A stretch of 36,714 bases of DNA from a virus (taxonomy: Duplodnaviria; Heunggongvirae; Uroviricota; Caudoviricetes), in the IMG/VR virus record IMGVR_UViG_2547132418_000017; one strand, given 5' to 3'. Shown one piece after another: positions 173 through 36,371 of this stretch. Position 1 is the first letter of the stretch. Every line of letters starts with the position of its first letter. The translations under genes and the position numbers were made by a program. Under the pieces are notes generated by a model. That model ran no database searches, was not told the origin of the DNA, and worked only from the letters and a program-made list of their open reading frames with translations.

Positions 173-850
173 TCATGCTAATTTTTTGCTTACAGGCTTC
201 GTTTCTTGCTCCGGCGTGGCAACGGTCTGACCACCAGGCGACCCAGCCCGTGCACGAGATTCGATGCGTCGCAAAATCTCTTTGTCAGTTTCTTCATTAC
301 CAGCCAATGCCATGCAAATAGCGTCTTTAAGCGATTCCCTGATGTTTAGGCTTCTGATGGCAGTCTCTTGTTCGTCCAGGTCGCTGTCGGCCTGCATAGC
401 TTGCCTGGTGGGTTGTTGTAAGCGTTCCAAGACTCCTTTGATACCGATGTTGTAAAAAACATCAAGCAAAACATCTAAATCTTGAGCATTCATGCGCTGT
501 AATAGGAGATTTAATTCTGTTCTTTCGGTCGGATTTTGTTGCGGATTATTGTTTTCTGTAGCGGATTTTCCTGAAATTAACCACTCTACGGGAACATTGC
601 ATGCATGAGCCACCAAAGCTGCGCTGTCTATACCTGGGTAGATCTTCCCCTGCACGTACTTTCGTATTGTGGCTTCAGATAACCCACTCAGTTTTGACAG
701 TGTCATGTAATTTAATCCGCTGCCTTCCATAGCTGATTTAAGGCGCTCGCCGAAGCGGATTATATCCATAGCCTCAATAATCCGTTCTTTCTCGGTTTGC
801 TTGCTTGCGGTTTTATCTGCGTAACCGTTTCTTTTTAAAGAGTTTTTCAT
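173..850 (-). CDS. Prophage repressor, N-terminal HTH (XRE/CI-like), 225 aa
   Basis: Leftward ORF divergent from the early operon; N-terminal helix-turn-helix-like segment LSKLSGLSEATIRKYVQGK; not similar to the Mu c repressor sequence as I recall it. Confidence 0.7.
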   Translation of the reverse strand: MKNSLKRNGYADKTASKQTEKERIIEAMDIIRFGERLKSAMEGSGLNYMTLSKLSGLSEATIRKYVQGKIYPGIDSAALVAHACNVPVEWLISGKSATENNNPQQNPTERTELNLLLQRMNAQDLDVLLDVFYNIGIKGVLERLQQPTRQAMQADSDLDEQETAIRSLNIRESLKDAICMALAGNEETDKEILRRIESRARAGSPGGQTVATPEQETKPVSKKLA

Positions 851-1269: not shown

Positions 1270-3312
1270 ATGTGGATTACAGCAAAAGAGTGTGCTGGCA
1301 TTGGAGGGCTACCAACACGTGAACACAATGTCAGAGCACGTCTAGATCGTGTAATTGAGAATAAACCTGAATTAAGGCGCAAGCGTGAAGGCACAAAAGC
1401 ATTCGAGTATCACATCGACTGCCTGCCCGCTGAAGCGGAGAAAGTTTTACGTAAGCGCCTGACCCATCAGGTCCTGGAAGATACGCAACTGCCCGCCGTG
1501 GTTGAGCAGAAGGCAGTTAAAAACGTTACCGTTCGCGATGAACTGGAGGTGATGGTCAAATGCCCGGAACTGGCATTACGCGAAGTTCAGGCACTGACTG
1601 ACAAGCAAAAAGCCATCGCAGATGCGCGGATATTGCTGGCTACCGAAGTGCATAAACTGCGTGAATACGCAGGAATGTCCAGGACGGCGGCGATAAAACA
1701 CATCGTTGATGGTATCCGGCAGGAGGCTTTGCCCGAGCGTGTTATTGTGGCAGGTAATACCGCCAATGCCCGACAGGGTAAGCGAACTGGCGTCAGTACA
1801 GGGAGTTTACAGGAATGGTATTCCGCCTGGCTGATGGCGCGCGGTGATGCCAATCAGTTACTGGCGTTACTGGCTCCCGGTCATCATAAGGGGACACCGT
1901 GGGAGCAGGTCTGGTGGTTGAGCGATTTCTTAATGTTCTATCGCTCATGGAAGCGCCCGACCGTTGAATATGCGTATCGCGAGTTTTCAGCCTGGTGGCA
2001 TGAAAAACACGCGAATGATGCGGGAATGCTGGCAGCACTGCCTTCAGTTCATGCAGTAAGACGGGTGTTAAGCAGCGTCCCGGTGATTGTTAAAGAGCGT
2101 TTCCGCTCCACCGGTTCAGCCTGGCGTTCGCTCAATCCCTTTGTGCGGCGCGACTGGACATCATTACCGGTTAATGCGGTATGGGTCGGGGATGGTCACT
2201 GTATGAAAATGACCGCGTTTAACCCCCTGACCGGCAATATTTTCCGGCCAGAAGTAACGCTGGTTATGGATGCGGGACAACGCTTTGTTGTGGGCTGGTC
2301 ACTGTCCCTGTCGGAGAACGTGATAGCCGTTGCTGATGCGTTACGTTACGGCATGGCGCAGCACGGGATACCGCTGGTTTATTACTCCGATAACGGGGGC
2401 GGTGAAAAAAACCGGGTGCTTGATGCCGATATTACCGGGATTCTGCCCCGGCTGGGTGTGGAACATCACACGGGGATACCAGGTAACCCGCAGGGGCGCG
2501 GGGTGATTGAAAGGCTTAATAAGGAAATTCCCCGGGATGTGGCCCTGAGTTTCCAGACGTACTGCTCAAAGGGAGCAGACAAGGAAACCGTAATGATGCA
2601 GCAACGGATTATGCAGTCAGCCATTAAGGCCACCCACAAAGGGAAAGAACTGACAAAACGGCAGGTTAAGGCGAGGGATGAAATCCCCACCTTTGAGCAG
2701 CTGATGGCAGCTATAGAGCTGGAGGTCAGACGCTATAACAACCGACCACACAGCAGCCTTCCCCGCAAAGAGGATGGCGAATATTACAGCCCGGCAGCGT
2801 ATCGCCGGAAACTGATAAAAGAGCAGAATGTTGAAATTGATTTCCTGTCGCCGGAAGAACTGCATGAAATGTTCAGACCGGAAGTGACGCGCAAAACATT
2901 TCGCGGGGAAATTCAGTTATTCAACAATATTTATTACTCGTATGAGCTGGCCGCAGAGCACGGGAATGAAGTCAGGGTCAGTTACGATATTCATGATGCA
3001 AACAGCGTCATTGTCCGGCGGGCTGATGGCTCTTATATCTGCGATGCCATCTGGAACGGTAACAAGGTTGATGCCTTCGCTAAACCAGTTATCGAACAAA
3101 AACTGGAGAAACGCGTCAGAGGCCGCATTGCACGGGCCACGCAGAAAATCGAAGAGGCTAAACGCGAGCTTACCCCGGCTATTACGCAGAAACCTGACTT
3201 TAATTTTGGATTTGGTCTGGAGCGCCCGGAGAAAAAGGATAAAGAAGAACTTTATTTATTTGCATCTGAACGCGAACGCAATTTAAAGAAAAACGGCACA
3301 AACAACCGTTAA
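1270..3312 (+). CDS. Mu-type DDE transposase A, 680 aa
   Basis: Size and position after ner; catalytic-core-like motifs VWVGDGHCM and VYYSDNGGGE. Confidence 0.9.
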   Translation: MWITAKECAGIGGLPTREHNVRARLDRVIENKPELRRKREGTKAFEYHIDCLPAEAEKVLRKRLTHQVLEDTQLPAVVEQKAVKNVTVRDELEVMVKCPELALREVQALTDKQKAIADARILLATEVHKLREYAGMSRTAAIKHIVDGIRQEALPERVIVAGNTANARQGKRTGVSTGSLQEWYSAWLMARGDANQLLALLAPGHHKGTPWEQVWWLSDFLMFYRSWKRPTVEYAYREFSAWWHEKHANDAGMLAALPSVHAVRRVLSSVPVIVKERFRSTGSAWRSLNPFVRRDWTSLPVNAVWVGDGHCMKMTAFNPLTGNIFRPEVTLVMDAGQRFVVGWSLSLSENVIAVADALRYGMAQHGIPLVYYSDNGGGEKNRVLDADITGILPRLGVEHHTGIPGNPQGRGVIERLNKEIPRDVALSFQTYCSKGADKETVMMQQRIMQSAIKATHKGKELTKRQVKARDEIPTFEQLMAAIELEVRRYNNRPHSSLPRKEDGEYYSPAAYRRKLIKEQNVEIDFLSPEELHEMFRPEVTRKTFRGEIQLFNNIYYSYELAAEHGNEVRVSYDIHDANSVIVRRADGSYICDAIWNGNKVDAFAKPVIEQKLEKRVRGRIARATQKIEEAKRELTPAITQKPDFNFGFGLERPEKKDKEELYLFASERERNLKKNGTNNR

Positions 3313-3330: not shown

Positions 3331-4224
3331 ATGAGTTTAATTACGCAATTAAATGACGTAATGGCCCGTCGCGGCTATACGCAGACCCACGTCGCCCGTG
3401 CTATTGGTCGTAGCAGCGCCGTTATCAACCAGTATTTACAGGGTAAATATCAGGGCGATATGGCTGATATTGAAGAACGCATTTCTGCCTTCGTGACCCG
3501 TGAGCGGGAAAAGGAAAACAGCCGCCGTATTAAAGCAAAGTTTGTGACCACCGGTATGGCTGCCAAAGGACTGGAGGTGCTGGCCTACGCTCACCTGGAA
3601 TGTGAAATCTGTGTGCTGTATGGCGCGGCAGGTCTTGGCAAAACAATGATTCTGCGTGAATACGCCTCCAGAAACCGGGATGCGGTCCTGATTGAGGCTG
3701 ACCCGGGCTATACAGCCAGGACACTGCTTGAGGAGTTGTGCCGCCAGCTGGGGGTAAAGGTTCGCGGCAACATTCACGAACTGATTGATGCCTGTGTGCG
3801 CGAACTGCGTGATTCCGGTCGTCTGCTGATGGTGGACGAGGCTGAACTGCTCCCCTATCGCGCACTGGAGGTTCTGCGCCGTCTGCATGACAAAGCGGGT
3901 ATCGGGGTTGTCCTGGCGGGTATGCCTCGTCTTCTGATTAATCTCAAGGGGCGTCGTGGTGAATTTGCGCAGTTATACAGCCGCGTGGCGCTGGCGCTTA
4001 ACCTGGGCGACATGCTGGCGCAGGAAGATTTTAACCAGATAGCCACCGGGCTGATGCCGGAAGCAGCAGAACGGGAAATCAGCGAGGCGCTTTACGCACG
4101 CTCGCTGGGTAATGCCCGCCGCCTGTTCAAACTGGCGCGTGGTGTGTACCGGATTTGTGATATCAGCGATGCGCCGGTCAGTGTGCAGGCCATTGATAAA
4201 TTCGCAGAAATGTTAATTCACTGA
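3331..4224 (+). CDS. Mu-type transposition ATPase B, 297 aa
   Basis: Walker A GAAGLGKT, Walker B LLMVDEAE, N-terminal HTH-like segment; immediately downstream of transposase A. Confidence 0.9.
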   Translation: MSLITQLNDVMARRGYTQTHVARAIGRSSAVINQYLQGKYQGDMADIEERISAFVTREREKENSRRIKAKFVTTGMAAKGLEVLAYAHLECEICVLYGAAGLGKTMILREYASRNRDAVLIEADPGYTARTLLEELCRQLGVKVRGNIHELIDACVRELRDSGRLLMVDEAELLPYRALEVLRRLHDKAGIGVVLAGMPRLLINLKGRRGEFAQLYSRVALALNLGDMLAQEDFNQIATGLMPEAAEREISEALYARSLGNARRLFKLARGVYRICDISDAPVSVQAIDKFAEMLIH

Positions 4225-9626: not shown

Positions 9627-10094
9627 ATGCAGACCTTCAGTGAAACAGATCTTCGCGATGCACAGGCACTGCTACCCGATTCCGTACAGCAACTGATTAG
9701 CGTGATTGGCTTCCCCGCCCTGACCCGGTTGATTTGTTCTTTTGGTGGTGTGACGTTAAGTGGTAAAACCGGCGCACACGCCGAACGCACCGGCGGTGTC
9801 CATGCCCTGTTACATGACGTGCTGACCGAAGACGAAATCAACAAACTGATCCGCTTTCTTGGCGGTGCACCGTTTTACATTCCCCGTTGCGATCATGCGT
9901 TACGTGCCCTGCGTAACACCCGTTTTATGGCTGATTTACAGCAGCATGTAAAAGGCGGATGCTCACACCGGCAGGCGCTGGCACTGCTCTGTCCCCGTTA
10001 CGGCATTTCAGACCGGTACGCATGGCAGCTGATACACCGACGACAAAAACAGACTTCGCTGAAAAGCCCCACCCAGGTGGGGCTTTTTGATTAA
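9627..10094 (+). CDS. mor: Mor/C-family transcriptional activator, 155 aa
   Basis: FYIPRCDHALRALRNTRF and C-terminal HTH-like RYGISDRYAWQLI resemble Mu Mor/C; located before the lysis and late genes. Confidence 0.75.
   Translation: MQTFSETDLRDAQALLPDSVQQLISVIGFPALTRLICSFGGVTLSGKTGAHAERTGGVHALLHDVLTEDEINKLIRFLGGAPFYIPRCDHALRALRNTRFMADLQQHVKGGCSHRQALALLCPRYGISDRYAWQLIHRRQKQTSLKSPTQVGLFD
10065..10089 (+). terminator. Rho-independent terminator overlapping the 3' end of the Mor-like gene
   Basis: AGCCCCACC / GGTGGGGCT stem followed by TTTTT; lies within the last codons of the ORF. Confidence 0.65.
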
Positions 10095-14405: not shown

Positions 14406-16001
14406 ATGGCACAGCTTGTTGATATTTGCGGACGCCCGCTGAAACGTGAGGCACTCAAAACCACGCAGTCGGTCAGAGTGGCGGAACGGCTGCGCATTTA
14501 TCCAGACCACCCGTCGCGTGGTCTGAACATCAGAAAACTGCCGCGCATTCTGGAAGCTGCCGAACGCGGTTATCTTCCGGCGCAGGCGATGCTGTTTGCG
14601 GATATGGAAGAGCGTGATGGTCATCTGTTCGCCGAGATGGAAAAGCGCAAAAAAGCGTTGCTGACGCTGGACTGGTCGGTGGAGCCGCCCCGCAATGCCT
14701 CGAAGGCAGAAAAGGAGCTGACTGCCGCCGTGGATGAGTGGCTGCACGGCATCCCGGACATGGAGGACATCATCCTCAACGGGATGACCAGTGTCGGTTA
14801 TGGCTTCAGTTGTCAGGAAATCAGCTGGGCGTTCGTGGATAAAACGTGGTTACCGGATGCGGTGACGCTGCGCCCGCATAACTGGTTTATTACCCTGCCG
14901 GAACACAATGACGAACTCCGGCTGGATGACGGCAACCGTGGGGAAGATGGTAAGGACGGCTCTGCACTGTGGCCGTTCGGCTGGCTGGTTCATCGTTACA
15001 ACGCCAGGTCGGGATTTCTGGGTTCATCCGGCCTGTTCCGCGTACTGGTCTGGCCGTATCTGTTTAAAAACTTCGCGCTGCGTGATATGGCGGAGTTTCT
15101 GGAGATTTACGGCCTTCCGGCGCGCATTGCGTACTATGCACAGGGCACCAGTGACGAGGACCGGGACAACATTCTTGAGGCGCTGGTCAATCTGGGTCAT
15201 GAAGCGGTGGCAGCCCTGCCGCAGGGTAACGAAATTGAGTTCAAGGAGGCCGCGTCCGGCGGACCGGAGGCGTTCATGTCGATGGTGGAATGGGCAGAGC
15301 GCACCACCTCAAAAGTGATTCTGGGCAGTACGCTGACCAGCCAGGCCGACGGTAAAACCTCCACCAACGCACTGGGTAATGTCCATAACGAGGTCAGGCA
15401 CGACATTCTGGCCGCCGATGCGCGCCAGCTGTCCGGCATGTTCAGCAGCCTGATACAGATGATGTCCAGCCTCAACGGCTGGCAGGATATCCCGCCACGC
15501 CGTCTGCCGCGACTGGTGTTTGATGTGCAGCAGGAAGCCGACATTAAGGGCGTGGCGGAAGCCGTCAGCGTGCTGGTCAACAATGTGGGAATGAAGGATA
15601 TCCCGGTGTCGTGGGTACGCAAAAAAACCGGTATCCCCACCCCGAAAGACGGCGAAGAGGTACTGGTGCCGGTGGCACAGCGTCTCCCTGTGCAGGCGGG
15701 CCTCAGCCAGTTGCGTGAGCGGCTGAATGTCGTCGCACTCAGTCAGCAGGACAACGGGGAGGACGACCCGGCACAACGCGCCATCGACCGGGCAGAACTT
15801 CCGGCAGAGGCCATCGCGCAGGGGATGAACGAACTGGTGGCCCCGCTGGTGCAGGCCATACAGGAAGGCCGGGATGCAGACGAGGCTATGAACGTACTGG
15901 CGGAAGCATGGCCGGAACTGCCGGATGAAACGCTGCGGCAGTTGCTGACACAGGCATTCTTTGTGGCGGATATCTGGGGGCGACTGAATGCCGAAAGCTG
16001 A
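14406..16001 (+). CDS. Portal protein (Mu gp29-like), 531 aa
   Basis: Size and position after large terminase; resembles the Mu-like portal family (DUF935) as recalled. Confidence 0.8.
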   Translation: MAQLVDICGRPLKREALKTTQSVRVAERLRIYPDHPSRGLNIRKLPRILEAAERGYLPAQAMLFADMEERDGHLFAEMEKRKKALLTLDWSVEPPRNASKAEKELTAAVDEWLHGIPDMEDIILNGMTSVGYGFSCQEISWAFVDKTWLPDAVTLRPHNWFITLPEHNDELRLDDGNRGEDGKDGSALWPFGWLVHRYNARSGFLGSSGLFRVLVWPYLFKNFALRDMAEFLEIYGLPARIAYYAQGTSDEDRDNILEALVNLGHEAVAALPQGNEIEFKEAASGGPEAFMSMVEWAERTTSKVILGSTLTSQADGKTSTNALGNVHNEVRHDILAADARQLSGMFSSLIQMMSSLNGWQDIPPRRLPRLVFDVQQEADIKGVAEAVSVLVNNVGMKDIPVSWVRKKTGIPTPKDGEEVLVPVAQRLPVQAGLSQLRERLNVVALSQQDNGEDDPAQRAIDRAELPAEAIAQGMNELVAPLVQAIQEGRDADEAMNVLAEAWPELPDETLRQLLTQAFFVADIWGRLNAES

Positions 16002-17154
16002 CGATGTTGACCTGGGGTATGCGTACACCCTGAAACCGGAAGAAGCGATTAAGTATTTCGAAAGCAAGGGATACGTTATCGGCTTCCGCTGGCACGATGT
16101 GAAGGACATCGCCAGTGCCCGGGCGTTCACGGTGGCGGGCGTGCTGAAACTGGATGTGCTGAAGGATATCCGTGATGGACTGACGGCGGCACTGGCTGAC
16201 GGCGGGACGTTCCGGGAGTTTGCTGCACAACTGGAACCACTGCTGGAATCAAAAGGCTGGCTGGGTAAAAAACTGATTGTGGACGAGGACACCGGCGAAC
16301 TGCATGGCAGGCAGCTGACGCCGCGCCGGTTGCGTACGCTATTCGATACCAATATTCAGTCGTCATATAACGCCGGGCGTTATCAGCAACAGATGGCGAA
16401 CGTGGCTGACCGGCCTTATTTTGAGCGCGTGGCGGTGATGGACCTTCACACGCGCCCGAAACACGCCGCCCTGAACGGTTTTACCGCCCGGGCGGATGAC
16501 CCTGTCTGGGAGTATTTCTACGCGCCGGACGGATACGGATGCCGCTGCCGTATCCGTGCGCGTTCGGCGTCTGATGTGGAGAAATACGGCCTGACGGTGC
16601 AGAGCAGCGAGGGGCGACTGGTTGAGGTTGAACAGGAATATGGCCAGCCGGGCCAGACCATCAGAACGATGGGTCTGAAGATGCCGGATGGCTCCGTGTA
16701 TACCGCCGACCCGGGCTTCGGATTTAATCCCGGTCGGGTGGCATGGCAGCCGGAACTGGAAAAATATGATTACCGTAGCGCCCGCCAGTATGTCACCGGC
16801 ACCCTGACCGGGCCGGATTTTGCCCGGGGACTGGCGAACGTCAGCAAACTGGATGCGCGCCAGCGATATCCGCTGGCCATCCGTTCACCGGAACAGGTCG
16901 CTGCCACGGGCGCTGCACGGCAGACGGTAAACCTGACGGCTGACGTCATGAAGCGCCTCAGTGCAACAGACACGCCCCCGACCGCCGCCGACTATGTGCT
17001 GATGCAGCAGACCATCGAACGGGCGGAGCATGTCACGCAGGACGGCAACGCGTGGCGGTATGCGTTACAGTCAGGCGACCGCTGGTCGGTGGTGACGGTT
17101 GAGGATGACGTGCTGACAGACTGGGTTATGCAGGACACACCGGAGGCATCATGA
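15988..17154 (+). CDS. Head morphogenesis protein (Mu F / gp30-like), 388 aa
   Basis: Position after portal with overlapping start; similar to Mu F family as recalled. Confidence 0.75.
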   Translation: MPKADDVDLGYAYTLKPEEAIKYFESKGYVIGFRWHDVKDIASARAFTVAGVLKLDVLKDIRDGLTAALADGGTFREFAAQLEPLLESKGWLGKKLIVDEDTGELHGRQLTPRRLRTLFDTNIQSSYNAGRYQQQMANVADRPYFERVAVMDLHTRPKHAALNGFTARADDPVWEYFYAPDGYGCRCRIRARSASDVEKYGLTVQSSEGRLVEVEQEYGQPGQTIRTMGLKMPDGSVYTADPGFGFNPGRVAWQPELEKYDYRSARQYVTGTLTGPDFARGLANVSKLDARQRYPLAIRSPEQVAATGAARQTVNLTADVMKRLSATDTPPTAADYVLMQQTIERAEHVTQDGNAWRYALQSGDRWSVVTVEDDVLTDWVMQDTPEAS

Positions 17155-19027: not shown

Positions 19028-19423
19028 ATGGATCGCAATACCCCCTATCGTGACGGCGAGCTGAACCCGGTGCCGGTTGCCGCTGCGACCGAAATTTTTG
19101 GCGGTCATATGGTGGCCGTTAACGCATCCGGTTATGCCGTTCCGGCCAGTGCCACGGCCTCACAGATTACGCTGGGCGTGTCTGATGGCTGGGTGGATAA
19201 CAGCAAGGGCAGCGATGGCGACGCCACCGTTCTGGTGCGTTGCGGCAAAGACTTTCTGATGGCGAATAGCACCTCAGACCCGGTCACGCAATCGCAGGTT
19301 GGTAAAGAATGCTACGTGGAAGACAGCGTGACCGTGGCGAAAACCGACAACAGCAGCGCCCGCCCTGTCGCCGGGAAAGTGATCGGCATCGGTGACGATG
19401 GCGTCTGGGTTCATTTCAGTTAA
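19028..19423 (+). CDS. Small head-associated protein (Mu Z-like position), 131 aa
   Basis: Sits between the protease/scaffold and major head genes. Confidence 0.4.
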   Translation: MDRNTPYRDGELNPVPVAAATEIFGGHMVAVNASGYAVPASATASQITLGVSDGWVDNSKGSDGDATVLVRCGKDFLMANSTSDPVTQSQVGKECYVEDSVTVAKTDNSSARPVAGKVIGIGDDGVWVHFS

Positions 19424-19433
19424 GGAGCAAAAC

Positions 19434-20342
19434 GTGTTTGTCAACGTTAAAAACGTCAAACAGATTTTTATCAATCTGAAGGCCACCTTCCAGAAAGCCT
19501 TCGACCAGTCACCAACTGACTGGCAGAAGGTGGCAATGGAAGTGCCATCAAACGGCAAGGAGAACGACTACAGCTGGTTAAGTCGTTTCCCGAAAATGCG
19601 CGAGTGGATTGGTGACAAGGTCGTCAAATCACTGGCGGCATTTAACTACACCATCCGTAACAAGGACTGGGAAGCCACGGTTGAAGTCGATCGTAACGAC
19701 ATCGAGGACGACCAGATTATGGGCTATGCCCTTCAGGCGAAAGGGGCCGGACAGTCGGCGGCAGAGCTACCGGCAGATATTGTGGCGTCCCTTATCAGTA
19801 ACGGTTTTACCAATCCATGTTACGACGGTCAGATGTTCTTTGATACCGACCACCTGGTCGCCGGTAAATCGGTGTCCAACAAAGGCATCAAAAAACTCAA
19901 AGTTGGCTCGCTTGCCGAGGCGAAAGCCTCCTACGGTGCCGCCCGTACGGCCATGCGTAGTCTGAAAGATGACGAAGGCGCATCCCTCAAAATTCGCCCG
20001 AATCTGCTGGTTGTGCCACCGGCGCTGGAGGATGACGCGAACTACCTGATGACCGCCGAGAAGTTCCCGGACGGCACACCGAACCCGTACCGCAATACCG
20101 CCGAGGTACTGGTGATGCCGGAGCTGGCGTCGGATTCTGCGTGGTTCCTGTTTGACACCACCAAACCGGTGAAACCGCTGATTTATCAGCTGCGTAAAAA
20201 GCCTGTTTTTGTGGAGCAGACGGACTACAACAGCGACAACGTGTTCAAGCGTAAGAAGTTCCTGTTTGGTGCCGAAGCGCGCTGTAACGGCGGTTACGGC
20301 TTCTGGCAGATGGCATTTGGTTCTGATGGTACGACGGAGTAA
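19434..20342 (+). CDS. Major head subunit (Mu T-like), 302 aa
   Basis: GTG 19434 with strong SD AAGGAG 19422..19427; size and position of Mu major capsid protein. Confidence 0.8.
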   Translation: MFVNVKNVKQIFINLKATFQKAFDQSPTDWQKVAMEVPSNGKENDYSWLSRFPKMREWIGDKVVKSLAAFNYTIRNKDWEATVEVDRNDIEDDQIMGYALQAKGAGQSAAELPADIVASLISNGFTNPCYDGQMFFDTDHLVAGKSVSNKGIKKLKVGSLAEAKASYGAARTAMRSLKDDEGASLKIRPNLLVVPPALEDDANYLMTAEKFPDGTPNPYRNTAEVLVMPELASDSAWFLFDTTKPVKPLIYQLRKKPVFVEQTDYNSDNVFKRKKFLFGAEARCNGGYGFWQMAFGSDGTTE

Positions 20343-21757: not shown

Positions 21758-21980
21758 GGCGGCTCCCGGGATGAAGTTCCCGATGGAGGATAACGCCCGG
21801 AAATACATCACCACGGAAGCGGTGACCGTTGAGAACACCGCTTATTACCGGCGCGCCGTTCAGGACGGTGACCTGATTCTGGTGAAGGATGAGCCTGAAA
21901 CCACCGTGACGGCTGAACAGGACGCCGTGCAGGTAAAAGCGAAGGCGAAGAGAGAGAAACAGGTGGATTCCGATGAGTGA
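21738..21980 (+). CDS. Mu gp38-like small protein, 80 aa
   Basis: Small ORF immediately upstream of the sheath gene, overlapping starts. Confidence 0.4.
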   Translation: MNKMKVKAAPGMKFPMEDNARKYITTEAVTVENTAYYRRAVQDGDLILVKDEPETTVTAEQDAVQVKAKAKREKQVDSDE

Positions 21981-23394
21981 AATTCAGTTTGACACCATTT
22001 CGGGCGGCATCCGTAAGCCCGGTGTGCATTTTGAGTTTAATACCCGGCTGGCCGTTAACACGCTGCCGGGTAATGAACAGCGTGTTCTGGTGATTGGCCC
22101 GATGCTGTCAGGCGGCACCGCCACGCCCCTGAATGCCGTTTCCGTGTATTCCGAAGACGAAGCGGATGTGTATTTCGGGGCCGGTTCGCTGGCCGCTGCA
22201 ATGGCGCGCGCGGCCATTAATGCCAACAGCTATCTGCAACTGGATGTTATCGGTATTGCAGACAGTGGCGCAGGAAAGGCGGCAACCGGCGCAGTTACCG
22301 TCAGTGGCACGGCAACCAGCAGCGGCACGCTGTCGGTATGGGTTGCCGGTGAGCAGGTCACGGTGGATGTGGAAACCGGTGATGAACCGTCGAAAATCAT
22401 TCCGGCACTGGTGGAAGCAATGAAGCAGACGCCCTCGCTTCTGGTGACGGGGGAATACAAATCAGAAACCTCTCAGCTGACGGTGACCTCCCGGACCAAA
22501 GGAGCATGGGGGAATGACATCACCCTGTCAGCGTCCACCACGGCAGGTGGTCTGACCGTGAGCGCCACGCCGATGGCGAACGGTGAAATGGACCCGGATA
22601 TTCAGCCCGCACTGGATGCGGTCTTTGCCGCCGGTCACAACATTCTGATTTGTCCGTTCAGTACCAAGCCAGCCCTTGCCGCCCTGAAGCAGCATCTGGA
22701 GAAAACCGGGAACGCGATGGAACAGCGCGGCGCGATTGGCTGTGCAGGCTGGACGGGCAGTCTCGGAAACGGGATCACCCTGGCCGCCGGTGTGAACAGC
22801 GGGCGCGTGTCCGTCCCCTGGTATCGCGGCTCCGTGAAGCTGCCAGCGGTGCTGGCTGCCATCTACGGCGCTGTGATGGCGGGCGAGGAAGACCCGGCGC
22901 GTCCGCTGAACTCGCTGGCGCTGTCCGGGCTGGATGTGGTCGCAATGTCACAGCGTGAAAGCCGTAACGAGCAGGAAAACGCCCTGCATAACGGCCTGAC
23001 GCCGGTTGAGGTTGGCCCGGGTAACACGGTGCAGATTGTGCGTGCGGTCAGTACGTACACGGTAAACGCACAGGGCGTGACTGACGTCTCGTTACTGGAT
23101 ATCACGTCCATCAGAACGCTGGACTACACCCGCAAGGCGTGCCGCGAACGCATCAGCCTTCGCTTCCCGCGCGAAAAACTCAGCACCCGCACTATCGCAA
23201 AAGTGGATAGCGAACTGTATGACGTGCTGATCAAGCTGGAGGAAGCGGAAATTCTGGAGAACGTGGAAGCGAACAAGGCAAAGCTGCGCGTTCAGCGAAA
23301 CGGGAAAGATGCAAACCGTCTCGACTGCGTGGTTCCGGCGGATGTGGTTAACGGCCTGCATGTGTTTGCCGGTCGCATCGACATGATTTTGTAA
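21973..23394 (+). CDS. Contractile tail sheath protein (Mu L-like), 473 aa
   Basis: Size and position upstream of tube gene; sequence resembles myovirus sheath proteins. Confidence 0.85.
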   Translation: MSEIQFDTISGGIRKPGVHFEFNTRLAVNTLPGNEQRVLVIGPMLSGGTATPLNAVSVYSEDEADVYFGAGSLAAAMARAAINANSYLQLDVIGIADSGAGKAATGAVTVSGTATSSGTLSVWVAGEQVTVDVETGDEPSKIIPALVEAMKQTPSLLVTGEYKSETSQLTVTSRTKGAWGNDITLSASTTAGGLTVSATPMANGEMDPDIQPALDAVFAAGHNILICPFSTKPALAALKQHLEKTGNAMEQRGAIGCAGWTGSLGNGITLAAGVNSGRVSVPWYRGSVKLPAVLAAIYGAVMAGEEDPARPLNSLALSGLDVVAMSQRESRNEQENALHNGLTPVEVGPGNTVQIVRAVSTYTVNAQGVTDVSLLDITSIRTLDYTRKACRERISLRFPREKLSTRTIAKVDSELYDVLIKLEEAEILENVEANKAKLRVQRNGKDANRLDCVVPADVVNGLHVFAGRIDMIL

Positions 23395-23406: not shown

Positions 23407-23781
23407 ATGTCCATTAAAGAATATGTCGGCTCGATTGTGCTGGAGGTGGACAGCCAGGAAATCGAGATCACCGACTTCGATGTTCAGATCAACACCGGCC
23501 GAAAGCTGGTCAAGACCATGAACAAAACCGGCAGGGCCAAAGGCTTTGCCCGTGGCATTGCCACCTATGATATTTCTGTTTCGGCGGTTATCCCTGATAC
23601 CAACGAGCCGGACTGGGAAAATCTGGAAGGTGTGAAAATCTCAATTTATCCGCTCAGTAACAGCGGTAAGCGCACCTCTTATCTGGACTGCTTCACCGTT
23701 GAAGTGGGTGAGAAATACACCGTCGACAGTGAAGCGAAAATTGATATCAAAATGGCTGCACTCAGGAAGGTGACAGGATGA
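23407..23781 (+). CDS. Tail tube protein (Mu M-like), 124 aa
   Basis: Small ORF directly after sheath gene. Confidence 0.75.
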   Translation: MSIKEYVGSIVLEVDSQEIEITDFDVQINTGRKLVKTMNKTGRAKGFARGIATYDISVSAVIPDTNEPDWENLEGVKISIYPLSNSGKRTSYLDCFTVEVGEKYTVDSEAKIDIKMAALRKVTG

Positions 23782-24161
23782 CTTTGATTAATACACAGAC
23801 CGGCGAGCTGTCTGATGGCGTGGTGTTTAACGGCACCGTTCATAAAAACTTTGAGCTGCGTCTGCCGGTCATGCGTGATAACGGGCAGGCACTGGAAGAA
23901 ACCGAAGAACGCTTTCAGACGGTGGATGGCTTCGCGGCGGATTATTACTACCGCTGTGCGGTGATGGCGGCAACGCTGGTCCGTCTGGGGGATATTCCGC
24001 AGGAAGAACTGACGGCGGAGCTGTTACACGACAACATGACGCCGGACGATTTTAATATTCTGCTGGCATCACGCAACGTCCTGAAGGTAAAGCGGAACGG
24101 CGGGAATCCCGGCTCGCCGGACTCCGGCTCGCAGTCCTCATCCTCGGGCGCTACGGAATAA
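23778..24161 (+). CDS. Tail assembly chaperone (Mu gp41-like), possible frameshift-extended product to 24334
   Basis: Between tube and tape measure genes; -1 frame is open from 24056 to 24334 and overlaps the 3' end of this ORF. Confidence 0.55.
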   Translation: MTLINTQTGELSDGVVFNGTVHKNFELRLPVMRDNGQALEETEERFQTVDGFAADYYYRCAVMAATLVRLGDIPQEELTAELLHDNMTPDDFNILLASRNVLKVKRNGGNPGSPDSGSQSSSSGATE

Positions 24162-24323
24162 CCGAAGAACAAATCATGACCATGAGCCGTCCAGAGCTGG
24201 ACGGCTGGCTTGCCGCCGTTGACAGGCTGAACGGCGGCGGCTCAGGAAGGAAGGACACCTCACAGACCACCCGCCAGTCATTTAAATCCCTCAGAAAGAA
24301 ACGCAGAAAAGGTAAGCAGAAAA

Positions 24324-26603
24324 ATGGCCGGTAATTTCAAAGTTGGCATGACCCTGACTGCGAAGGACGAAGCCTCGCAGGTTCTGGAAAAGGGGCAAAA
24401 ACAGGTTATCAAAGCCACCGAAGGTGTAACAAAGGCGACACGGAAGGCAGGCGCAGAGCAGAAGCGTACCGAGCAGGAAAGCATTAACAGCACGAAAAAG
24501 GCCGCAAAAGAGATACAGCGTGCCGCTCGTGCCCGGGAAACGCTCGGTATTCGTGCAGAGCGTGAGATCCAGCGTGAAATTTATCTGACGGTTGCCAGTT
24601 ATAACCGTCTGGCTCGTGCCGGTTTTGAATCTGCGCAGGAGCAGGAGCGCGCCATGCAGGCCACCCGGGAAAAAGCCCGGGCACTCAAGCGCGAACTGGA
24701 TGGCGTTACTCAGGCTCAGATGAAGATGGCGAAAACGCCTGTTATCCCTGAACCGGGTCGTTTTGCCCGTGCAGCTGCATTTGGCGGGAATGCCGTGACA
24801 ATAGGTGGTGGTATTGCAGCAGGTGCTGCCATTATGGCGCAGCCGGTCAAAAAGCAGATGAGCTACGAACGCCAGCTGGCAATGATGGCCAATACCGCCT
24901 TCAGTGATGGCGGGCTGGAGGGGCGCAGGGCTGGTCTTGAGCAGATGAAAAGCAGCATCCGTAACGCGGTGACCTATGGCGGCGGTACGAAAGAAGACGC
25001 AGCCGAAACGCTGGATGCCCTGCTGAAAGACGGCATTTCATTTGAAACAGCCAACAAGTGGCTGCCCGAACTGATGAAATACGCCACTGCTTCAGGCGCA
25101 TCTGCAACAGACCTGGCCAAGGTGATGATTAAGGGCAAAAAGACCTTTGGATTCAGGGATGAAGATATTTCCACCGTTCTGAATATGGCGATTGCAGCGG
25201 GCAAAGAAGGCAGCTTTGAACTGAACGACATGGCCCGCTGGTTATCCCAGCAAATGGGCGCTGCGTCAGCTGCGGGGATGAAAGGCAAGGATGATTTCGT
25301 CAAGATTCTGGCGCTGAATGAAGCTTCCGCCATCACGGCTGGCAGTAGTGATGAAGCTGGAAATAACGTGGTTAACCTGCTGGCAAAACTGACCAGTAAG
25401 GATATTGAAACAGCGGCTGCGGGGATAAAATACAACGGTAAGGGAATCGACTTTTCCGGCACGCTGACTGAAGCACGCGAGAATGGACTTAATCCGATAG
25501 ACGCGCTGTCCAGCCTGATAGACAAAATTGTTGCCAGTGATAAACGCTATCAGGAGCTGCAAAAGAAACTGGCATCCGCCCGGGACAAAGGCGAGCAGAC
25601 GGCTGTTTATGATTCGATGGCAAAACTCCTTGAAGGCTTTGGTGTCGGAAAGCTGGTTGCAGACCGTCAGGCGTTGATGGCGTTGTTAGCCTACCGTAAC
25701 AACCCGGAATACCGGAAAAAAGTTGAAGACGCGATTAATCAGCAGCGCACCCTGCCAGAAGGTCAGCGCGCCGGGGATGTGGATTTTAAATTCATATCAG
25801 ACACGAATGATTTTAAAACCGGGCAGGCTAAAAACACGCTTGAATTTTCACAAATGGATGGTGTGAAAAAACTGGCGGATGCATCCGGTACTGTGGCCGA
25901 TGCCATAAGCTGGGCGGGTGAAAAATTTCCGGGGCTGACCACAGCAGTGGTGGGTGCCACGACCGCCATTGAAGCGATGACCGCAGCGGCTCTGACATGG
26001 GCCGGGATCAAAATCCTGACCGGAGGTAAACCCGGTGGCAAGGCTGGCGAGGTTGTCGGTGATGTAATTGAAAACACGGTCAAAAAAGGCAAAGGATTTA
26101 AATTCCCCGGTATTGCCGGTGGCCTGCTTTCTTTAGGTGGCACTGTTACGGCACTGGCCACCGCAACCAGTCCGGAAGAAGATGCCGCCGTCGAAGGAAG
26201 CGAGGAGCGCTGGAAAAATATACGGGCTAAATATCCTCAGTGGCTGATTGATGCTGCCCGTGAAAAATATCAGCCGTGGTGGCAGTTTGGCGAAGGTTAC
26301 TCAACAGAAAACGAGAAATGGATCCAGCAGTATCTTGACGAACTGAAAAAAACTGGGGTTATCGCCGGTGATTCTCTGCCGACACCAGAACAAGTCCGAC
26401 AGCAAGCCGGAATGGCAGCGTCTGAAACGGCATCAAAGCAACCCGGACGCATCACCCAGCCGGAATACCTCACGCACTGGGGACCACCTGCCAGCCCCAT
26501 TAATTTCACCACACAACTGGTGCTCGATGGTCAGGTCGTGGCGGAAGCGGTGAATAAATACAACCTTCAGGACGGCAACAGAGGCACGGGAGGAACTTAC
26601 TGA
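24324..26603 (+). CDS. Tail tape measure protein, 759 aa
   Basis: Long Ala/Gly-rich ORF downstream of tube and chaperone genes. Confidence 0.85.
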   Translation: MAGNFKVGMTLTAKDEASQVLEKGQKQVIKATEGVTKATRKAGAEQKRTEQESINSTKKAAKEIQRAARARETLGIRAEREIQREIYLTVASYNRLARAGFESAQEQERAMQATREKARALKRELDGVTQAQMKMAKTPVIPEPGRFARAAAFGGNAVTIGGGIAAGAAIMAQPVKKQMSYERQLAMMANTAFSDGGLEGRRAGLEQMKSSIRNAVTYGGGTKEDAAETLDALLKDGISFETANKWLPELMKYATASGASATDLAKVMIKGKKTFGFRDEDISTVLNMAIAAGKEGSFELNDMARWLSQQMGAASAAGMKGKDDFVKILALNEASAITAGSSDEAGNNVVNLLAKLTSKDIETAAAGIKYNGKGIDFSGTLTEARENGLNPIDALSSLIDKIVASDKRYQELQKKLASARDKGEQTAVYDSMAKLLEGFGVGKLVADRQALMALLAYRNNPEYRKKVEDAINQQRTLPEGQRAGDVDFKFISDTNDFKTGQAKNTLEFSQMDGVKKLADASGTVADAISWAGEKFPGLTTAVVGATTAIEAMTAAALTWAGIKILTGGKPGGKAGEVVGDVIENTVKKGKGFKFPGIAGGLLSLGGTVTALATATSPEEDAAVEGSEERWKNIRAKYPQWLIDAAREKYQPWWQFGEGYSTENEKWIQQYLDELKKTGVIAGDSLPTPEQVRQQAGMAASETASKQPGRITQPEYLTHWGPPASPINFTTQLVLDGQVVAEAVNKYNLQDGNRGTGGTY

Positions 26604-29841: not shown

Positions 29842-30192
29842 ATGGACCAGACGATTTCACCTGCAACCGGCGACTACGAACGCCGCCGGATTTATACACT
29901 CCATAACTCGGTTTATCTGCGACTGGCGACACCGCTTGGCAGTTACTGGGCGGATACGTCGCTGGGGTCACGCCTGCACGAACTGAAGCGGGAAAAAGAC
30001 GTTTCCCGTGTTCACAGGCTGGCGGCGCAGTATGCCAGCCAGGCACTTCAGCCCCTGCTTGATGACGAGCGGGCAAAATCCATTACCGTTGACACGAAAG
30101 CGGGCCAGCGCGGCTGGCTGTTGCTGTTAATCACCGTCACGGATAACGCGGGCACACCGCAGACGTTTGAACACCCTGTGAGGATTATGTAA
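29842..30192 (+). CDS. Baseplate protein (Mu gp46-like), 116 aa
   Basis: Small ORF between spike and J-like baseplate gene. Confidence 0.55.
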   Translation: MDQTISPATGDYERRRIYTLHNSVYLRLATPLGSYWADTSLGSRLHELKREKDVSRVHRLAAQYASQALQPLLDDERAKSITVDTKAGQRGWLLLLITVTDNAGTPQTFEHPVRIM

Positions 30193-31271
30193 TGCCGTTT
30201 CCTGTTCCGGGCGTTGCTGAAAACACAGAACGCCAGCTACGTGATATCGCTAACGCTCTGCCGGGAGAAACCATAGATACCAGCGCAGACAGCGATTACC
30301 GCATTCGTGCCAATGCCGTATCCGGCGTGGCTGACGGGCTTTATATGCATCAGGGGTGGATACTCCGTCAGGTGTTTCCTGACACGGCAGACCCTGAATA
30401 TCTGGAGCTGCACTGCCGCACACGCAATGTTTTTCGTAAAAAAGCAACTGCCTCATCCGGTCAGGTGGTGATTACCGGCGCACCCGGTAAGACACTGCCA
30501 GCCGGTGCGGAAATTCGTGGTGAAGGTGTCAGCGTGGCCACCACAGCAGACTGCACCATCGGTGATGAAGGCAGCGCAGAGGTGACGGTAAAAAGCACCG
30601 CCACAGGTGCACAGACGAATGCATCCACGACGCAGACGGCAATGCTGGTCAGTCCGCCGGAAGGCATCAACAGCACGGTGACGATTAAATCCCTGACCGG
30701 CGGAACGGACAGGGAAAGCGACGCCGACCTGCTGGCGCGTTATCTGGATATTCTGCGCAGGCCGCCCGCTGGCGGTAACAAATATGATTACAAACGCTGG
30801 GCGCTGGAAGTGGATGGCGTTACGTCTGCGTATGTGGAGCCGTTGCGCCGTGGTCTGGGGACGGTTGATGTGGCCATTACGTCAGCCAATGACCTTCCCT
30901 CGCAGGAACTGATTAATGCCGTGCTGGCTCATATTGAGGAAGTCCGCCCGGTGACAGCGAAGGACATGATGGTACTGGCCCCGACGAAAAAAGCCGTTGA
31001 TTTCGTTGTCCGGGTAAAAACCAGCGGCCTGACCGTTGAGCAGATAAAACCGCAGATAACTGACGTTATCACGGATTTTATGAACCGACTGGAGCCGGGG
31101 CAGGAATTAATTATTTCACAACTGGAAACCCAGATTTCATTAATTTCCGGTGTCAGTGACCGGCGAATCATTACGCCAGCAGACAACGTAAAAGCCATTA
31201 TTAACGCGTCAACGTGGGAATGGCTGCGCCCCGGAAATATTGATATTCAGCCTTTTCCGCGTGAGGGGTGA
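30192..31271 (+). CDS. Baseplate J-like protein (Mu gp47-like), 359 aa
   Basis: Size and position; resembles baseplate J family. Confidence 0.75.
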   Translation: MPFPVPGVAENTERQLRDIANALPGETIDTSADSDYRIRANAVSGVADGLYMHQGWILRQVFPDTADPEYLELHCRTRNVFRKKATASSGQVVITGAPGKTLPAGAEIRGEGVSVATTADCTIGDEGSAEVTVKSTATGAQTNASTTQTAMLVSPPEGINSTVTIKSLTGGTDRESDADLLARYLDILRRPPAGGNKYDYKRWALEVDGVTSAYVEPLRRGLGTVDVAITSANDLPSQELINAVLAHIEEVRPVTAKDMMVLAPTKKAVDFVVRVKTSGLTVEQIKPQITDVITDFMNRLEPGQELIISQLETQISLISGVSDRRIITPADNVKAIINASTWEWLRPGNIDIQPFPREG

Positions 31272-33236: not shown

Positions 33237-36200
33237 ATGTCTGTATTAATTTCAGGTGCGCTGATTAATGGCGCTGGCGTTCCGATGGCGGAATGCAAAA
33301 TTTATTTAGATGCACTGGTTAATACCAGTGAAGTGGTTATTGAATCATTTGCGGTTATTGAAACCGATGCGGCGGGACAGTATGCCTTTGAAGCACAAAA
33401 AGGCAAATACACCGTACACATCAAGCAAAAGAACGGCCCTAAGTGCTGTGTGGGTGACATTTCGGTTTACGAAGATTCAAAGCCCGGCACGCTGAACGAC
33501 TTTCTGACTGCCCTTGATGAAGGCGATTTAAAGCCGGATGTAGTGAAACGCTTTGAGGAAATGGTGGCGCAGGCGCAGCAGAGCGCGGAAGCGGCAGCGA
33601 AAAGCGAACAACTGGCCGGGCAACACGTCGCTGATGCGCAGAAGATAAAGGCAGACTGTCAGACGCTGGCGGATAACGTAGCGCAGAACGCAGAAGACGT
33701 TGCTGAAGACAAAAAGCAGGTGGCGCTGCTGGCATCATCTGCCACACAGGATGCGGCCCGCGCAGAGCAGGCGGTCAAAGATGCCGACACGATAGTCCAG
33801 AAAGCGGTCGATAAACTCGGTGAAGCCGCAACGCTGAGCGGCGAGGCAAAGGCCAGTGCAGAAGCGGCAGCAAAAAGCGAGCAGGGCGCAAAACAGCACA
33901 GGGACGAGGCGCAACGGATAGTTGATGACCTGAAGGGAAGCAGTGCTTCCACGACAGAAAAAGGCCTGGTGCAACTCTGTAGTGATACGGACAACGACAG
34001 CGAAGAACTGGCAGCCACACCGAAGGCCGTCAAAACCGTCATGGACGAGACGAAAACAAAAGCGCCGCTGGACAGCCCGGCATTCACCGGCACGCCCACC
34101 ACACCAACCCCACCGGACGATGCTGCCGGTCTGGAAACAGCGAACGCGGCATTTGTCCGCAAACTGCTCGCTGCACTGGTTGACTCGTCACCGGAGGCCC
34201 TGGACACGCTGAACGAGCTGGCAGCGGCGCTGGGAAATGACCCGAATTTTGCGACGACAGTCACCAAAGCACTGGCAGGTAAACAGCCACTCAGTGACGT
34301 GTTAACCGCAATCAGTAATCTGGAAGAACGGGCAGATAATCTTCTGTGCTTTAATCAGGACGGAAATGCTTCACTGTCTCCACTGTCAGAAAAAGCCCGG
34401 TCACTGCTGGCACAGGCCACAGTGGAAGCTATGCGCAATGAGCTTGAGCTGAAAAGCGCAGCGGTAATGGATATTCAGACAGACATTCACGACAGCACGA
34501 AAGGCCGCATTGCGCTTCCCGGTGCGTATGGTTACGGAATGACGGACGCCGGAGCGCGTTCAATTATTGCCAGCGATATGGCGACTGTAGCCAGAACCGC
34601 TCACAACCTGCACCCGGGACGCTATTACACCTTTGCCACACGAACGGAAGAAACAACCGGGATAACAGAAATTATCTGGCTGGATAATGGCCGGGCCGAC
34701 AAAACCAGCCAGACAGCAACAAAGCTGGTTCTGTTTTTTGGAAAAGACGGACGGATTCTTATGACCGTTCGTGGCGATAATATCTCCGCCCCGGTCACCT
34801 GGACGAATCTGACGCCACAACTTGGCAATGCAGCACAGAAGGATGCGCAGGAGAATATTTACGACCGCACCGAAGGCCGTCTGGCGATTCCCGGCATGTT
34901 TGGATTCGGGAAAGTATTTTTCATCGGCGACAGGACCGAGTTTAAAACAGAGGCCGATTTTCTCCGCTGGGTAAAAACGGCAAATCCCGGACGCTATGCC
35001 GTTTATGCAGATACAAATGCGGTAATACAGGGCGTGCTGTTCAAGGGTACCGTTGAAATTATCTGGCCGGAACCTCAAATCAGCCATGATACGGCATATG
35101 TGGCCAAAATCATTATTTTTTACGGTATTAACGGCCATATTTATTACAATCGCTACTGGACTACCGGAGATGGTTATCTGGTTGGCTGGGAAAACCTGAA
35201 GGTTGATGAGGCTTCACTCCGGGCACTGATTGAAACCCGCGCGCCACTGAACAGCCCGGCACTGACCGGAACGCCGTCCACGCCAACACCACAGGATGAT
35301 GCAGCAGGCACTGAAATAGCCAATGCGGCGTTTGTCCGCAAACTGCTCGCCACGCTGGTTGGCTCATCACCGGAAGCCCTGGACACGCTGAACGAGCTGG
35401 CAGCGGCACTGGGCAATGACCCGAACTTTGCGACAACCGTCACTAATGCACTGGCAGGTAAACAGCCGCTTAATGACGTGTTAACGGCTGTCAGCAAGAT
35501 AACACCGGAAGAAAACACACTGCCCTATTTCAGTGCAGATGGCAGGATTTTACTGGCGCAGTTGTCAGAAAAAGCCCGCGCATTACTGGCACTGGACACA
35601 CCTGAAGCCATGCGCACGGAGCTTGAACTGAAAGCGGCTGCGACGATGGAACCCCAGAGCGATATCCGTGACCGCACACCGGGCAGACTGGCGCTGTCCG
35701 GCATGCATGGCTTTGGTCAGGCATTCAGCAGTGCCGACGCTCTGACATTTAACGGGCAGGCCGATTTTGTTGAATGGCTGAAAAAGGCCGCCCCGGGGCG
35801 TTATGCGGTCAGTATTGCGGACTCTTCCATGCTGCTGGTTGGCACCAAGAAATTTAACGGCACCATTGATGTGATGTGGTCGCCCTTTGATAACGATGAG
35901 TCGGACACAATACGAAAATTCAAAACACTGCTGTGTTTTAACCAGTATTACGAAGGTGAGCATAGTATTCATTTCCTGACTTACCGCTTTAGTGGAAACA
36001 ACTGGAATGCAACAGTAAGCCCTGTCATTTACGACGGCGATTCGCTGGCGTTCTTACTGTCCCGGACAGCAGGCTCAGGCTCATATTTCAAATACCCGGC
36101 AGTGGGTGTTCCAGTGCTGGCTGTTTATCGCGGAACAACTTTCGGGGATAAAGAAATCAATATTGGCCTGGGTGATGTGGTGCAGGGGTCACAACTGGGC

Positions 36201-36371
36201 GGAGTTAATCTTTCGTGCTTAATATCTTCTGCTGGGGTTGGCTCCTACAATTCCGCACCGAGTGCAGGAGCTACAGGGTACACTTTCCCGGGGCGTTATA
36301 TGGCGCTATCCGGGGTCAGGGACTCTAAAGGAATAACCGGTCGTATCTGCCTGTTTGTGCGCATCGAGTAA
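33237..36371 (+). CDS. Large side-tail-fibre-like protein with internally duplicated Stf-like module, 1044 aa
   Basis: Two copies of ...SPA(F/L)TGTP(T/S)TPTP.DDAAG.E.ANAAFVRKLLA...SPEALDTLNELAAALGNDPNFATTVT.ALAGKQP..., resembling the conserved region of lambda Stf; N-terminal Ala/Lys-rich region. Confidence 0.85.
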   Translation: MSVLISGALINGAGVPMAECKIYLDALVNTSEVVIESFAVIETDAAGQYAFEAQKGKYTVHIKQKNGPKCCVGDISVYEDSKPGTLNDFLTALDEGDLKPDVVKRFEEMVAQAQQSAEAAAKSEQLAGQHVADAQKIKADCQTLADNVAQNAEDVAEDKKQVALLASSATQDAARAEQAVKDADTIVQKAVDKLGEAATLSGEAKASAEAAAKSEQGAKQHRDEAQRIVDDLKGSSASTTEKGLVQLCSDTDNDSEELAATPKAVKTVMDETKTKAPLDSPAFTGTPTTPTPPDDAAGLETANAAFVRKLLAALVDSSPEALDTLNELAAALGNDPNFATTVTKALAGKQPLSDVLTAISNLEERADNLLCFNQDGNASLSPLSEKARSLLAQATVEAMRNELELKSAAVMDIQTDIHDSTKGRIALPGAYGYGMTDAGARSIIASDMATVARTAHNLHPGRYYTFATRTEETTGITEIIWLDNGRADKTSQTATKLVLFFGKDGRILMTVRGDNISAPVTWTNLTPQLGNAAQKDAQENIYDRTEGRLAIPGMFGFGKVFFIGDRTEFKTEADFLRWVKTANPGRYAVYADTNAVIQGVLFKGTVEIIWPEPQISHDTAYVAKIIIFYGINGHIYYNRYWTTGDGYLVGWENLKVDEASLRALIETRAPLNSPALTGTPSTPTPQDDAAGTEIANAAFVRKLLATLVGSSPEALDTLNELAAALGNDPNFATTVTNALAGKQPLNDVLTAVSKITPEENTLPYFSADGRILLAQLSEKARALLALDTPEAMRTELELKAAATMEPQSDIRDRTPGRLALSGMHGFGQAFSSADALTFNGQADFVEWLKKAAPGRYAVSIADSSMLLVGTKKFNGTIDVMWSPFDNDESDTIRKFKTLLCFNQYYEGEHSIHFLTYRFSGNNWNATVSPVIYDGDSLAFLLSRTAGSGSYFKYPAVGVPVLAVYRGTTFGDKEINIGLGDVVQGSQLGGVNLSCLISSAGVGSYNSAPSAGATGYTFPGRYMALSGVRDSKGITGRICLFVRIE

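Follow-up and report, generated by a model that had tools for sequence, protein, structure and literature searches.

A -1 ribosomal frameshift in the tail assembly chaperone has been described for phages lambda (G/GT) and P2 (E/E+E'), in work by Levin et al. (1993) and by Xu, Hendrix and Duda (2004, 2013, 2014) that is summarised in PMC5009743. The canonical slippery heptamer, X_XXY_YYZ, is usual in these systems but not obligatory: phage Mu uses a -2 shift (PMC5009743), its chaperone gp41 being frameshifted into the +1 frame at CGG_GGG_CGA (Xu et al. 2004, via PMC5009743 and PMC2628397), and the authors of PRFect report that some annotated chaperone frameshifts have no recognised motif. Here we analyse the equivalent locus in a 36,714-nucleotide stretch of DNA from a tailed virus (Caudoviricetes; IMG/VR virus record IMGVR_UViG_2547132418_000017), hereafter the window, in which the gene between the tail tube and tape measure genes is overlapped by an open reading frame (ORF) in the -1 frame. 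From the comparison of related loci we consider it very likely that a -1 frameshift joining the two products, G and T, operates in this prophage, and the data as a whole are best explained, with good though somewhat lower confidence, by a minority shift at the sequence G_GUA_AAG that yields a G-T fusion.

The features of the locus, all on the + strand, are as follows (expect values are given as E, isoelectric points as pI).

23407-23781, +: tail tube gene (phrog_185 tail tube protein, E 3e-35; from the ORF list)
23778-24161, +: tail assembly chaperone, 0-frame product ("G"), 127 amino acids, 13.9 kDa, pI 4.6 (phrog_508, E 1e-40, residues 2-126)
24056-24334, +: -1-frame open stretch, 92 codons plus stop (preceded by TAA 24053-24055, ended by TAA 24332-24334)
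24086-24092, +: probable slip site G_GUA_AAG, with its core A_AAG at 24089-24092 (from the tetramer scan, relatives, synonymous sites and bracketing)
24092-24334, +: putative -1-frame extension ("T" part), 80 amino acids (24092-24331) plus TAA, pI 11.5 (phrog_3114, "unknown function", E 9e-19)
24098-24119, +: predicted 3' stimulatory hairpin, stem CGGCGGG (24098-24104) with CUCGCCG (24113-24119), loop AAUCCCGG (minimum free energy fold)
24176-24334, +: ORF of 52 amino acids, "hypothetical protein" WP_000178828.1, called by the Prokaryotic Genome Annotation Pipeline (PGAP) in E. coli genomes
24324-26603, +: tape measure gene, starting at ATG 24324 (PF10145, E 6e-21)

The chaperone ORF extends from ATG 23778 to TAA 24159-24161, and its start overlaps the stop of the tube gene (ATGA, 23778-23781). 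The -1 ORF overlaps the chaperone gene by 106 nucleotides (nt), and the stop of the T part overlaps the tape measure start in ATGGCCGGTAA (24324-24334), an overlap that is kept in nearly all relatives. A first-pass annotation of the window had called the chaperone ORF at 23778-24161 and the -1 ORF at 24056-24334, coordinates that hold against the ORF list and the raw sequence; it had placed the end of the -1 ORF just inside the tape measure gene, and this end lies 11 nt inside the gene, counted from ATG 24324. It had also seen no classical heptamer in the overlap, and our scan of every 0-frame codon there agrees: no X_XXY_YYZ heptamer is present, and the Z_ZZN tetramers are only two, A_AAG at 24089-24092 and G_GGC at 24146-24149.

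The similarities with lambda G/GT and P2 E/E+E' are several: (i) the chaperone gene sits between the tail tube (in the known systems, tube or major tail) and tape measure genes; (ii) the 0-frame product is short and acidic, and the overlapping -1 ORF stops at the tape measure start; (iii) the arrangement is conserved among relatives, and in the structural model the shift would fall near the C-terminus of a folded domain whose predicted fold may be like that of the HK97 chaperone. Unlike lambda and P2, the window is without the heptamer, and GUA_AAG would let only one tRNA re-pair; nor was any similarity in sequence to the lambda or P2 proteins detected.

How well the -1 ORF is conserved was assessed in about 60 related loci with 30-100% chaperone identity. 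Since a megablast search of the region against the phage collection gave no match, relatives were sought by protein searches, locus scans and contigs encoding diverged homologues, and two further clades were reached by starting from a gut phage and from Ralstonia phage YO374_1; an alignment mixing the clades had diverged too far to seed the locus search. A metagenome scan returned near-identical copies only and a genome scan three loci. The prophage family is present in 56 of 5,426 complete E. coli genomes, with the region at 90-99% identity, and further in Citrobacter, Yersinia, Enterobacter and others. Every one of the 33 first-set loci, down to 38% identity, has a -1 ORF running across the chaperone stop, as do 27 of 28 in the two more distant clades. 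The +1 ORF is not conserved, amounting to 9 codons in locus L006, and in the window the +1 frame closes at 24222 without a conserved peptide.

Only two of the roughly 60 loci, L038 and L086, have no -1 ORF across the chaperone stop. In L038, a 30%-identical relative, a T-like peptide (LLKLGFSYTEALAMPWSEAFAYLD...) lies at positions 1781-1951 in the +1 frame, not the -1 frame; this locus would need a -2 or a +1 shift, as in phage Mu, and it seems that within this family the shift has switched direction. In L086, from the gut-phage clade, the -1 ORF across the stop has 10 codons only and the 0 frame 123 codons, which is probably the result of an indel or an assembly error.

The peptide encoded in the -1 frame is conserved too, which bears on whether T is a separate gene. 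On that alternative there would be no frameshift: a small gene of 52 amino acids would start at ATG 24176, and its overlap with the chaperone would be incidental. RefSeq genomes do carry the PGAP-called WP_000178828.1 here, the Klebsiella phage record likewise has a separate coding sequence, the Met at 24176 is conserved and is where phrog_3114 starts, and alternate-frame ORFs across stops are common in this genome. However, this 52-residue ORF corresponds to the 3' two-thirds of the T part with its start called at an internal Met, and the conserved part of the -1 peptide reaches back about 28 codons beyond that Met, as LAGLRLAVLILGRYGITEEQI in the window, LAGLRIAVLALGRCGLSEERV in L030 and LSGLRRATLILGRFGIS in L003. 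Longer stretches of it read ...SRLAGLRLAVLILGRYGITEEQIMTMSRPELDGW... in the window, ...SSLAGLRIAVLALGRCGLSEERVMNMTRTELDGF... in L030 and ...GLSGLRRATLILGRFGISGDRIEGMTVSELTSW... in Klebsiella phage ST405-OXA48phi1.1, whose chaperone is 38% identical, and across clades the T part shares the core L-x-L-G-R-x-G-I-(T/S)-E-x-x-I-x-x-M-(S/T)-R-x-E-L-D, followed by a basic tail. L030 and L031 are near-identical and effectively one lineage. Their 0 frame ends 12 codons past the proposed slip site, so that IAVLALGRCGLSEERV is encoded in a single frame only, and no ATG or GTG precedes it; to judge by these sequences, such a one-frame stretch would be hard to reconcile with independent initiation at the Met. 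In addition, ATG 24176 has no good Shine-Dalgarno sequence before it, the suppression of synonymous change described below starts 84 nt (28 codons) upstream of it, at NNA_AAG, and relatives have a canonical A_AAA_AAG immediately before which the -1 frame opens. We regard a separate gene in place of the frameshift as improbable.

Three lines of evidence converge on the position of the shift. Firstly, the relatives bracket it: in L030 and L003 the codon pair that aligns with GTA-AAG directly follows a stop in the -1 frame, and L030 has a 0-frame stop at window position 24126-24128, so the site must lie within about 24087-24128. Secondly, when 19 distinct sequences from the window's clade are aligned by codons, the pairwise identity at third positions stays within 0.33-0.56 for every 9-codon window across the gene body and climbs to about 0.9 from AAG-GTA-AAG (24084-24092) onward. 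Thirdly, the bracket holds the hexanucleotide GUA_AAG (24087-24092), in which A_AAG stands in the 0 frame behind an NNA codon and with the -1 frame open, and the homologous codon pair is NNA_AAG in every clade. It is A_AAA_AAG in the clades of Klebsiella phage ST405-OXA48phi1.1 and Ralstonia phage YO374_1 and in the gut-phage clade (25 of the 26 loci found with the L040 query), G_GGA_AAG in L028 and, in the window's own, enterobacterial, clade, G_GAA_AAG in L056 and L060 and G_GCA_AAG or A_GCA_AAG in many members. The GTA codon itself has identities of 1.00, 0.36 and 1.00 at its three positions, the residue varying and the final A never doing so; five amino acids (K, G, E, A and V) are found here, each time with an A-ending codon. 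The product of the A-ending codon fractions, from the prophage's own codon usage, is 0.001, a rough figure that ignores relatedness, and GTA accounts for only 8% of the Val codons of the prophage. We therefore place the slip site, with good confidence from these alignments, at G_GUA_AAG, 24086-24092. The alignment of homologous chaperones, which the first-pass annotation had suggested for finding a conserved slip site, thus yields NNA_AAG, and the reason why that annotation saw no classical heptamer is that the window has G_GUA_AAG where relatives have A_AAA_AAG or G_GGA_AAG. Its interpretation of the locus as a -1 frameshift of the lambda G/GT type is supported by the -1 ORF, kept in 33 of 33 and 27 of 28 loci of related phages, by the -1 peptide and by the switch at synonymous sites.

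The same comparisons bear on whether the shift might occur elsewhere in the overlap, at G_GGC (24146-24149) or as a +1 or -2 event. G_GGC is the sole other Z_ZZN tetramer there, Mu does use a -2 shift, and the T-like ORF of L038 is in the +1 frame. G_GGC is nonetheless an unlikely slip site: it is unconserved, its position being TCG GAC, TCG GAA or TTG GCC in relatives, it lies outside the 24087-24128 bracket and beyond the point where the 0 frame of L030/L031 has ended, and E. coli ribosomes do not shift on this tetramer (PMC4066793). A +1 or -2 event would have to use a frame that in the window closes without a conserved peptide. A shift of this kind seems to us very improbable.

Even less probable, in our view, is that RNA polymerase rather than the ribosome slips to make the fusion. 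Long runs of A can cause polymerase slippage, and runs of 6-8 A do occur at the site in some relatives. At this place the window and all of its clade, however, have just three consecutive A (GTAAAG, GCAAAG), far too few for slippage, and the feature common to all clades is the 0-frame A_AAG, a ribosomal signal.

Just before the slip site, at 24084-24087, stands a largely conserved SD-like (Shine-Dalgarno-like) AAGG, replaced in two relatives by CGGG. Stimulation of a -1 shift by such an element takes a spacing of about 10-14 nt, and AAGG was dropped as a candidate stimulator on the ground that it adjoins the site too closely; it may reflect the context of the E-site codon or the constraints of coding in two frames.

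As we envisage it, most ribosomes would stop at TAA 24159 and release the acidic chaperone of 127 amino acids, and a minority would shift by -1 at G_GUA_AAG. The tRNA-Lys on AAG (24090-24092) would re-pair with AAA (24089-24091) and the tRNA on GUA would re-pair poorly, so that the slip would be of the single-tRNA, hexanucleotide NNA_AAG type. Translation would resume in the -1 frame at GCG (24092-24094) and run to TAA 24332-24334. The predicted G-T fusion, of 185 amino acids and 20.9 kDa, would consist of chaperone residues 1-105 and the basic T domain of 80 residues, joined as ...NVLKVK-AERRE... (junction peptide LLHDNMTPDDFNILLASRNVLKVKAE). In lambda, T brings the tube protein to the complex of chaperone and tape measure protein. 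If lambda G/GT is a guide, G would here bind the tape measure protein and T would recruit the tube/sheath initiator, and a fixed low G:GT ratio would be needed for tail assembly.

Sites of this type have been described. In E. coli no other tetramer shifts nearly as readily as A_AAG, whose efficiency is 0.26-5.6% with the IS3 pseudoknot and, in reporters without a stimulator, close to background (PMC4066793). NNA_AAG sites are used by the insertion sequence (IS) IS1222 (G_CGA_AAG) and present in B. subtilis cdd (A_CGA_AAG), their efficiency depending on how the tRNA that reads NNA behaves in wobble pairing (PMC5009743). In lambda the ratio of G to GT is about 30:1 (PMC5009743); since about one GT per 30 G is what lambda needs, a weak site would be compatible with function. 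The site in the window has in common with those of IS3, IS1222 and cdd an A_AAG core after an NNA codon whose tRNA cannot re-pair, and a low intrinsic efficiency and dependence on 3' structure are to be expected in all of them; in contrast to these, the host gene is a structural-assembly chaperone and not a transposase, and the candidate stimulator in the window is a simple hairpin of 7 base pairs, unlike the IS3 pseudoknot. With the E. coli dnaX site, A_AAA_AAG, the link is through the window's distant relatives, which have exactly this sequence at the homologous codon; unlike dnaX, the window has GUA in place of AAA, the first half of the heptamer being lost, and no SD-like element at the dnaX distance of 10-14 nt.

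The candidate stimulator is the GC hairpin at 24098-24119, a 7-base-pair stem set off from the AAG by a 5-nt spacer (24093-24097), which may pause the ribosome and so raise the efficiency of a weak site. Among 18 distinct relatives 98% of the stem cells are paired, substitutions fall in the loop in L030, L051 and L056, and L059 has one compensatory stem change, from G-C to A-U, which keeps Arg in the -1 frame (CGG to AGA). The outer stem of the minimum free energy fold (24093-24096 with 24123-24126) was discarded, as it is broken in relatives (87% paired) and shows no covariation. We put the chances that the hairpin stimulates the frameshift at about even.

Hairpins near the site occur in other clades as well. 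L061-L085 and L040, of the gut-phage clade, have an invariant stem, GCCGC-loop-GCGGC, about 6-7 nt 3' of A_AAA_AAG, with a varying loop (CUGAA, CCGAG, CAGAG and others) and the same layout as the window's candidate; the Ralstonia phage has a GC hairpin a few nt downstream of A_AAA_AAG by single-sequence folding, and no hairpin was evident near the site in the Klebsiella clade. An Rfam search of the window found no dnaX or IS frameshift element. It returned only a sub-threshold match to the Bacteroides small RNA BTnc231 (window 24184-24304, minus strand, 21.6 bits against a gathering score of 80.4, E 0.035), which we judged to be chance.

A variant of this mechanism uses the same A_AAG but makes the hairpin secondary or irrelevant: the tRNA-Lys would slip in the ribosomal P site while the A site awaits CGG (24093-24095) as a "hungry codon". 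CGG is read by a low-abundance tRNA in E. coli, it is a minor Arg codon in the prophage (16%), and it follows AAG in the window and in the Klebsiella and Ralstonia clades; that the hairpin is without statistical support, as detailed below, also favours the variant. Several relatives, though, have CGC, the commonest Arg codon, or CTC instead, and the need to encode both K-R (frame 0) and K-A (frame -1) accounts for a conserved CGG with no kinetic role. Its product is identical, so sequence data cannot tell it from the hairpin version; we hold the hungry-codon variant to be unlikely, though less so than the other alternatives considered here.

The 0-frame protein fits the frameshift at G_GUA_AAG in its predicted structure. 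Its AlphaFold model (20-sequence alignment) has a mean predicted local distance difference test score (pLDDT) of 79; the last predicted helix, residues 89-106, reaches as far as the slip codon, and disorder is predicted for residues 113-127. The shift would therefore retain the folded domain and swap a disordered tail for the T part, as in lambda G/GT. The best matches to the predicted fold are tail assembly chaperones, that of HK97 coming first among solved structures. By sequence, the two products belong to PHROG 508 (chaperone) and PHROG 3114 (T part); Pfam and NCBIfam have no family for either, and a sequence search of the PDB gave nothing meaningful.

The window resembles phage Mu in virus type, being a Mu-like prophage, and in the gene order sheath, tube, chaperone, tape measure. 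Unlike Mu, its shift would be -1 and at GUA_AAG, and the T parts are unrelated in sequence. The window protein was unmatched by Gp41_Mu (PF23746) and Phage_TAC_7 (PF10109) at E <= 10, and its relative L040 gave only sub-threshold matches to them (E 8e-4 and 0.023), where Mu gp41, as a control, matches at E 9e-35; an hhalign comparison of the window chaperone with Mu gp41 gave a probability of only 8.9%.

Several points weigh against a frameshift at G_GUA_AAG, or against parts of the mechanism. (i) In 11 of the window's 36 + strand genes the stop codon is spanned by a -1 ORF of 92 codons or more, which is mostly the next gene. ORF geometry alone is thus not more than chance, and it is the conservation in relatives, as far as their sequences go, that lifts the case above it. 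In-frame A_AAG is likewise found 46 times in 10,380 codons. (ii) A P-site tRNA-Val cannot re-pair from GUA to GGU, and A_AAG alone is barely above background, so function would depend on the candidate stimulator. (iii) For that hairpin the covariation rests on one sequence, with a score reached by 34 of 500 shuffles; it folds no more stably than shuffled sequence (z 0.16 and -0.19), and dual coding alone could explain the invariance of the stem. (iv) The window chaperone matches no Pfam tail-chaperone family, even at E <= 10. (v) Independent initiation at the conserved Met could operate as an additional route to part of T. (vi) Public annotation has it otherwise: the two RefSeq genomes (PGAP) and the Klebsiella phage record that we inspected carry no frameshift annotation, and in all three the putatively recoded gene is split into two unrelated "hypothetical proteins"; the weak, non-heptamer slip site would account for its having escaped the annotators.

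Natural in-frame G-T fusions were not among the results of a homology search with the T part, which gave only fragments and the products of error-ridden assemblies. One of the latter, P0049, is fused in frame at exactly the predicted junction and reads ...NVLKVKAERRESRLAGLRLAVLIL...; indels occur in this region in P0049 and P0040, from an E. coli contig of 518,716 bases, and in P0032 and P0046, from a contig of 1,037,283 bases. As adjacent genes are disrupted too, homopolymer errors in sequencing are the most likely cause, rather than natural fusion.

By its gene content the window (1-36714) is an apparently complete Mu-like transposable prophage of about Mu's size, with Mu-type genes for MuA, MuB, Mor, Portal_Mu, Mu F, gpT and gpP. 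Beyond the chaperone locus, its identified genes include the following.

173-850, minus strand: helix-turn-helix repressor-like gene
1270-3312: MuA transposase
3331-4224: MuB-like AAA ATPase
9627-10094: Mor
14406-16001: Portal_Mu
15988-17154: Mu F
19392-20342: gpT major head
21973-23394: sheath gene
30192-31271: Baseplate_J
33237-36371: tail fibre of 1044 amino acids, with a lambda-type phage_tail_N domain

The contractile tail module is of the Mu/FluMu type, comprising sheath, tube, chaperone, tape measure, a DNA-circulation protein and a gpP-like hub. The phage collection contains no near match to the window as a whole, and a scan for promoters and terminators gave nothing relevant.

Taken together, the window, a Mu-like prophage, very probably has the tail-chaperone frameshift whose conservation Xu, Hendrix and Duda described, with a type of slip site known from IS elements. 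The general picture of tail assembly would be unchanged, but the annotation of the locus would become a G-T fusion of 185 amino acids, PHROG 3114 would gain a function, and motif-based frameshift finders that require a heptamer would miss tail-chaperone frameshifts on A_AAG hexanucleotide sites. More tentatively, one chaperone family may hold a series of slip sites at a single codon pair, from A_AAA_AAG through G_GGA_AAG to G_GAA, G_GCA or G_GUA followed by AAG, in which the enterobacterial clade would have given up re-pairing in the P site and compensated with an invariant GC hairpin, perhaps together with CGG, to hold the G:GT ratio. If this possibility were true, the family would be a ready-made system for the co-evolution of slip site and stimulator, and would let one ask whether the G:GT ratio is tuned or regulated in Mu-like prophages.

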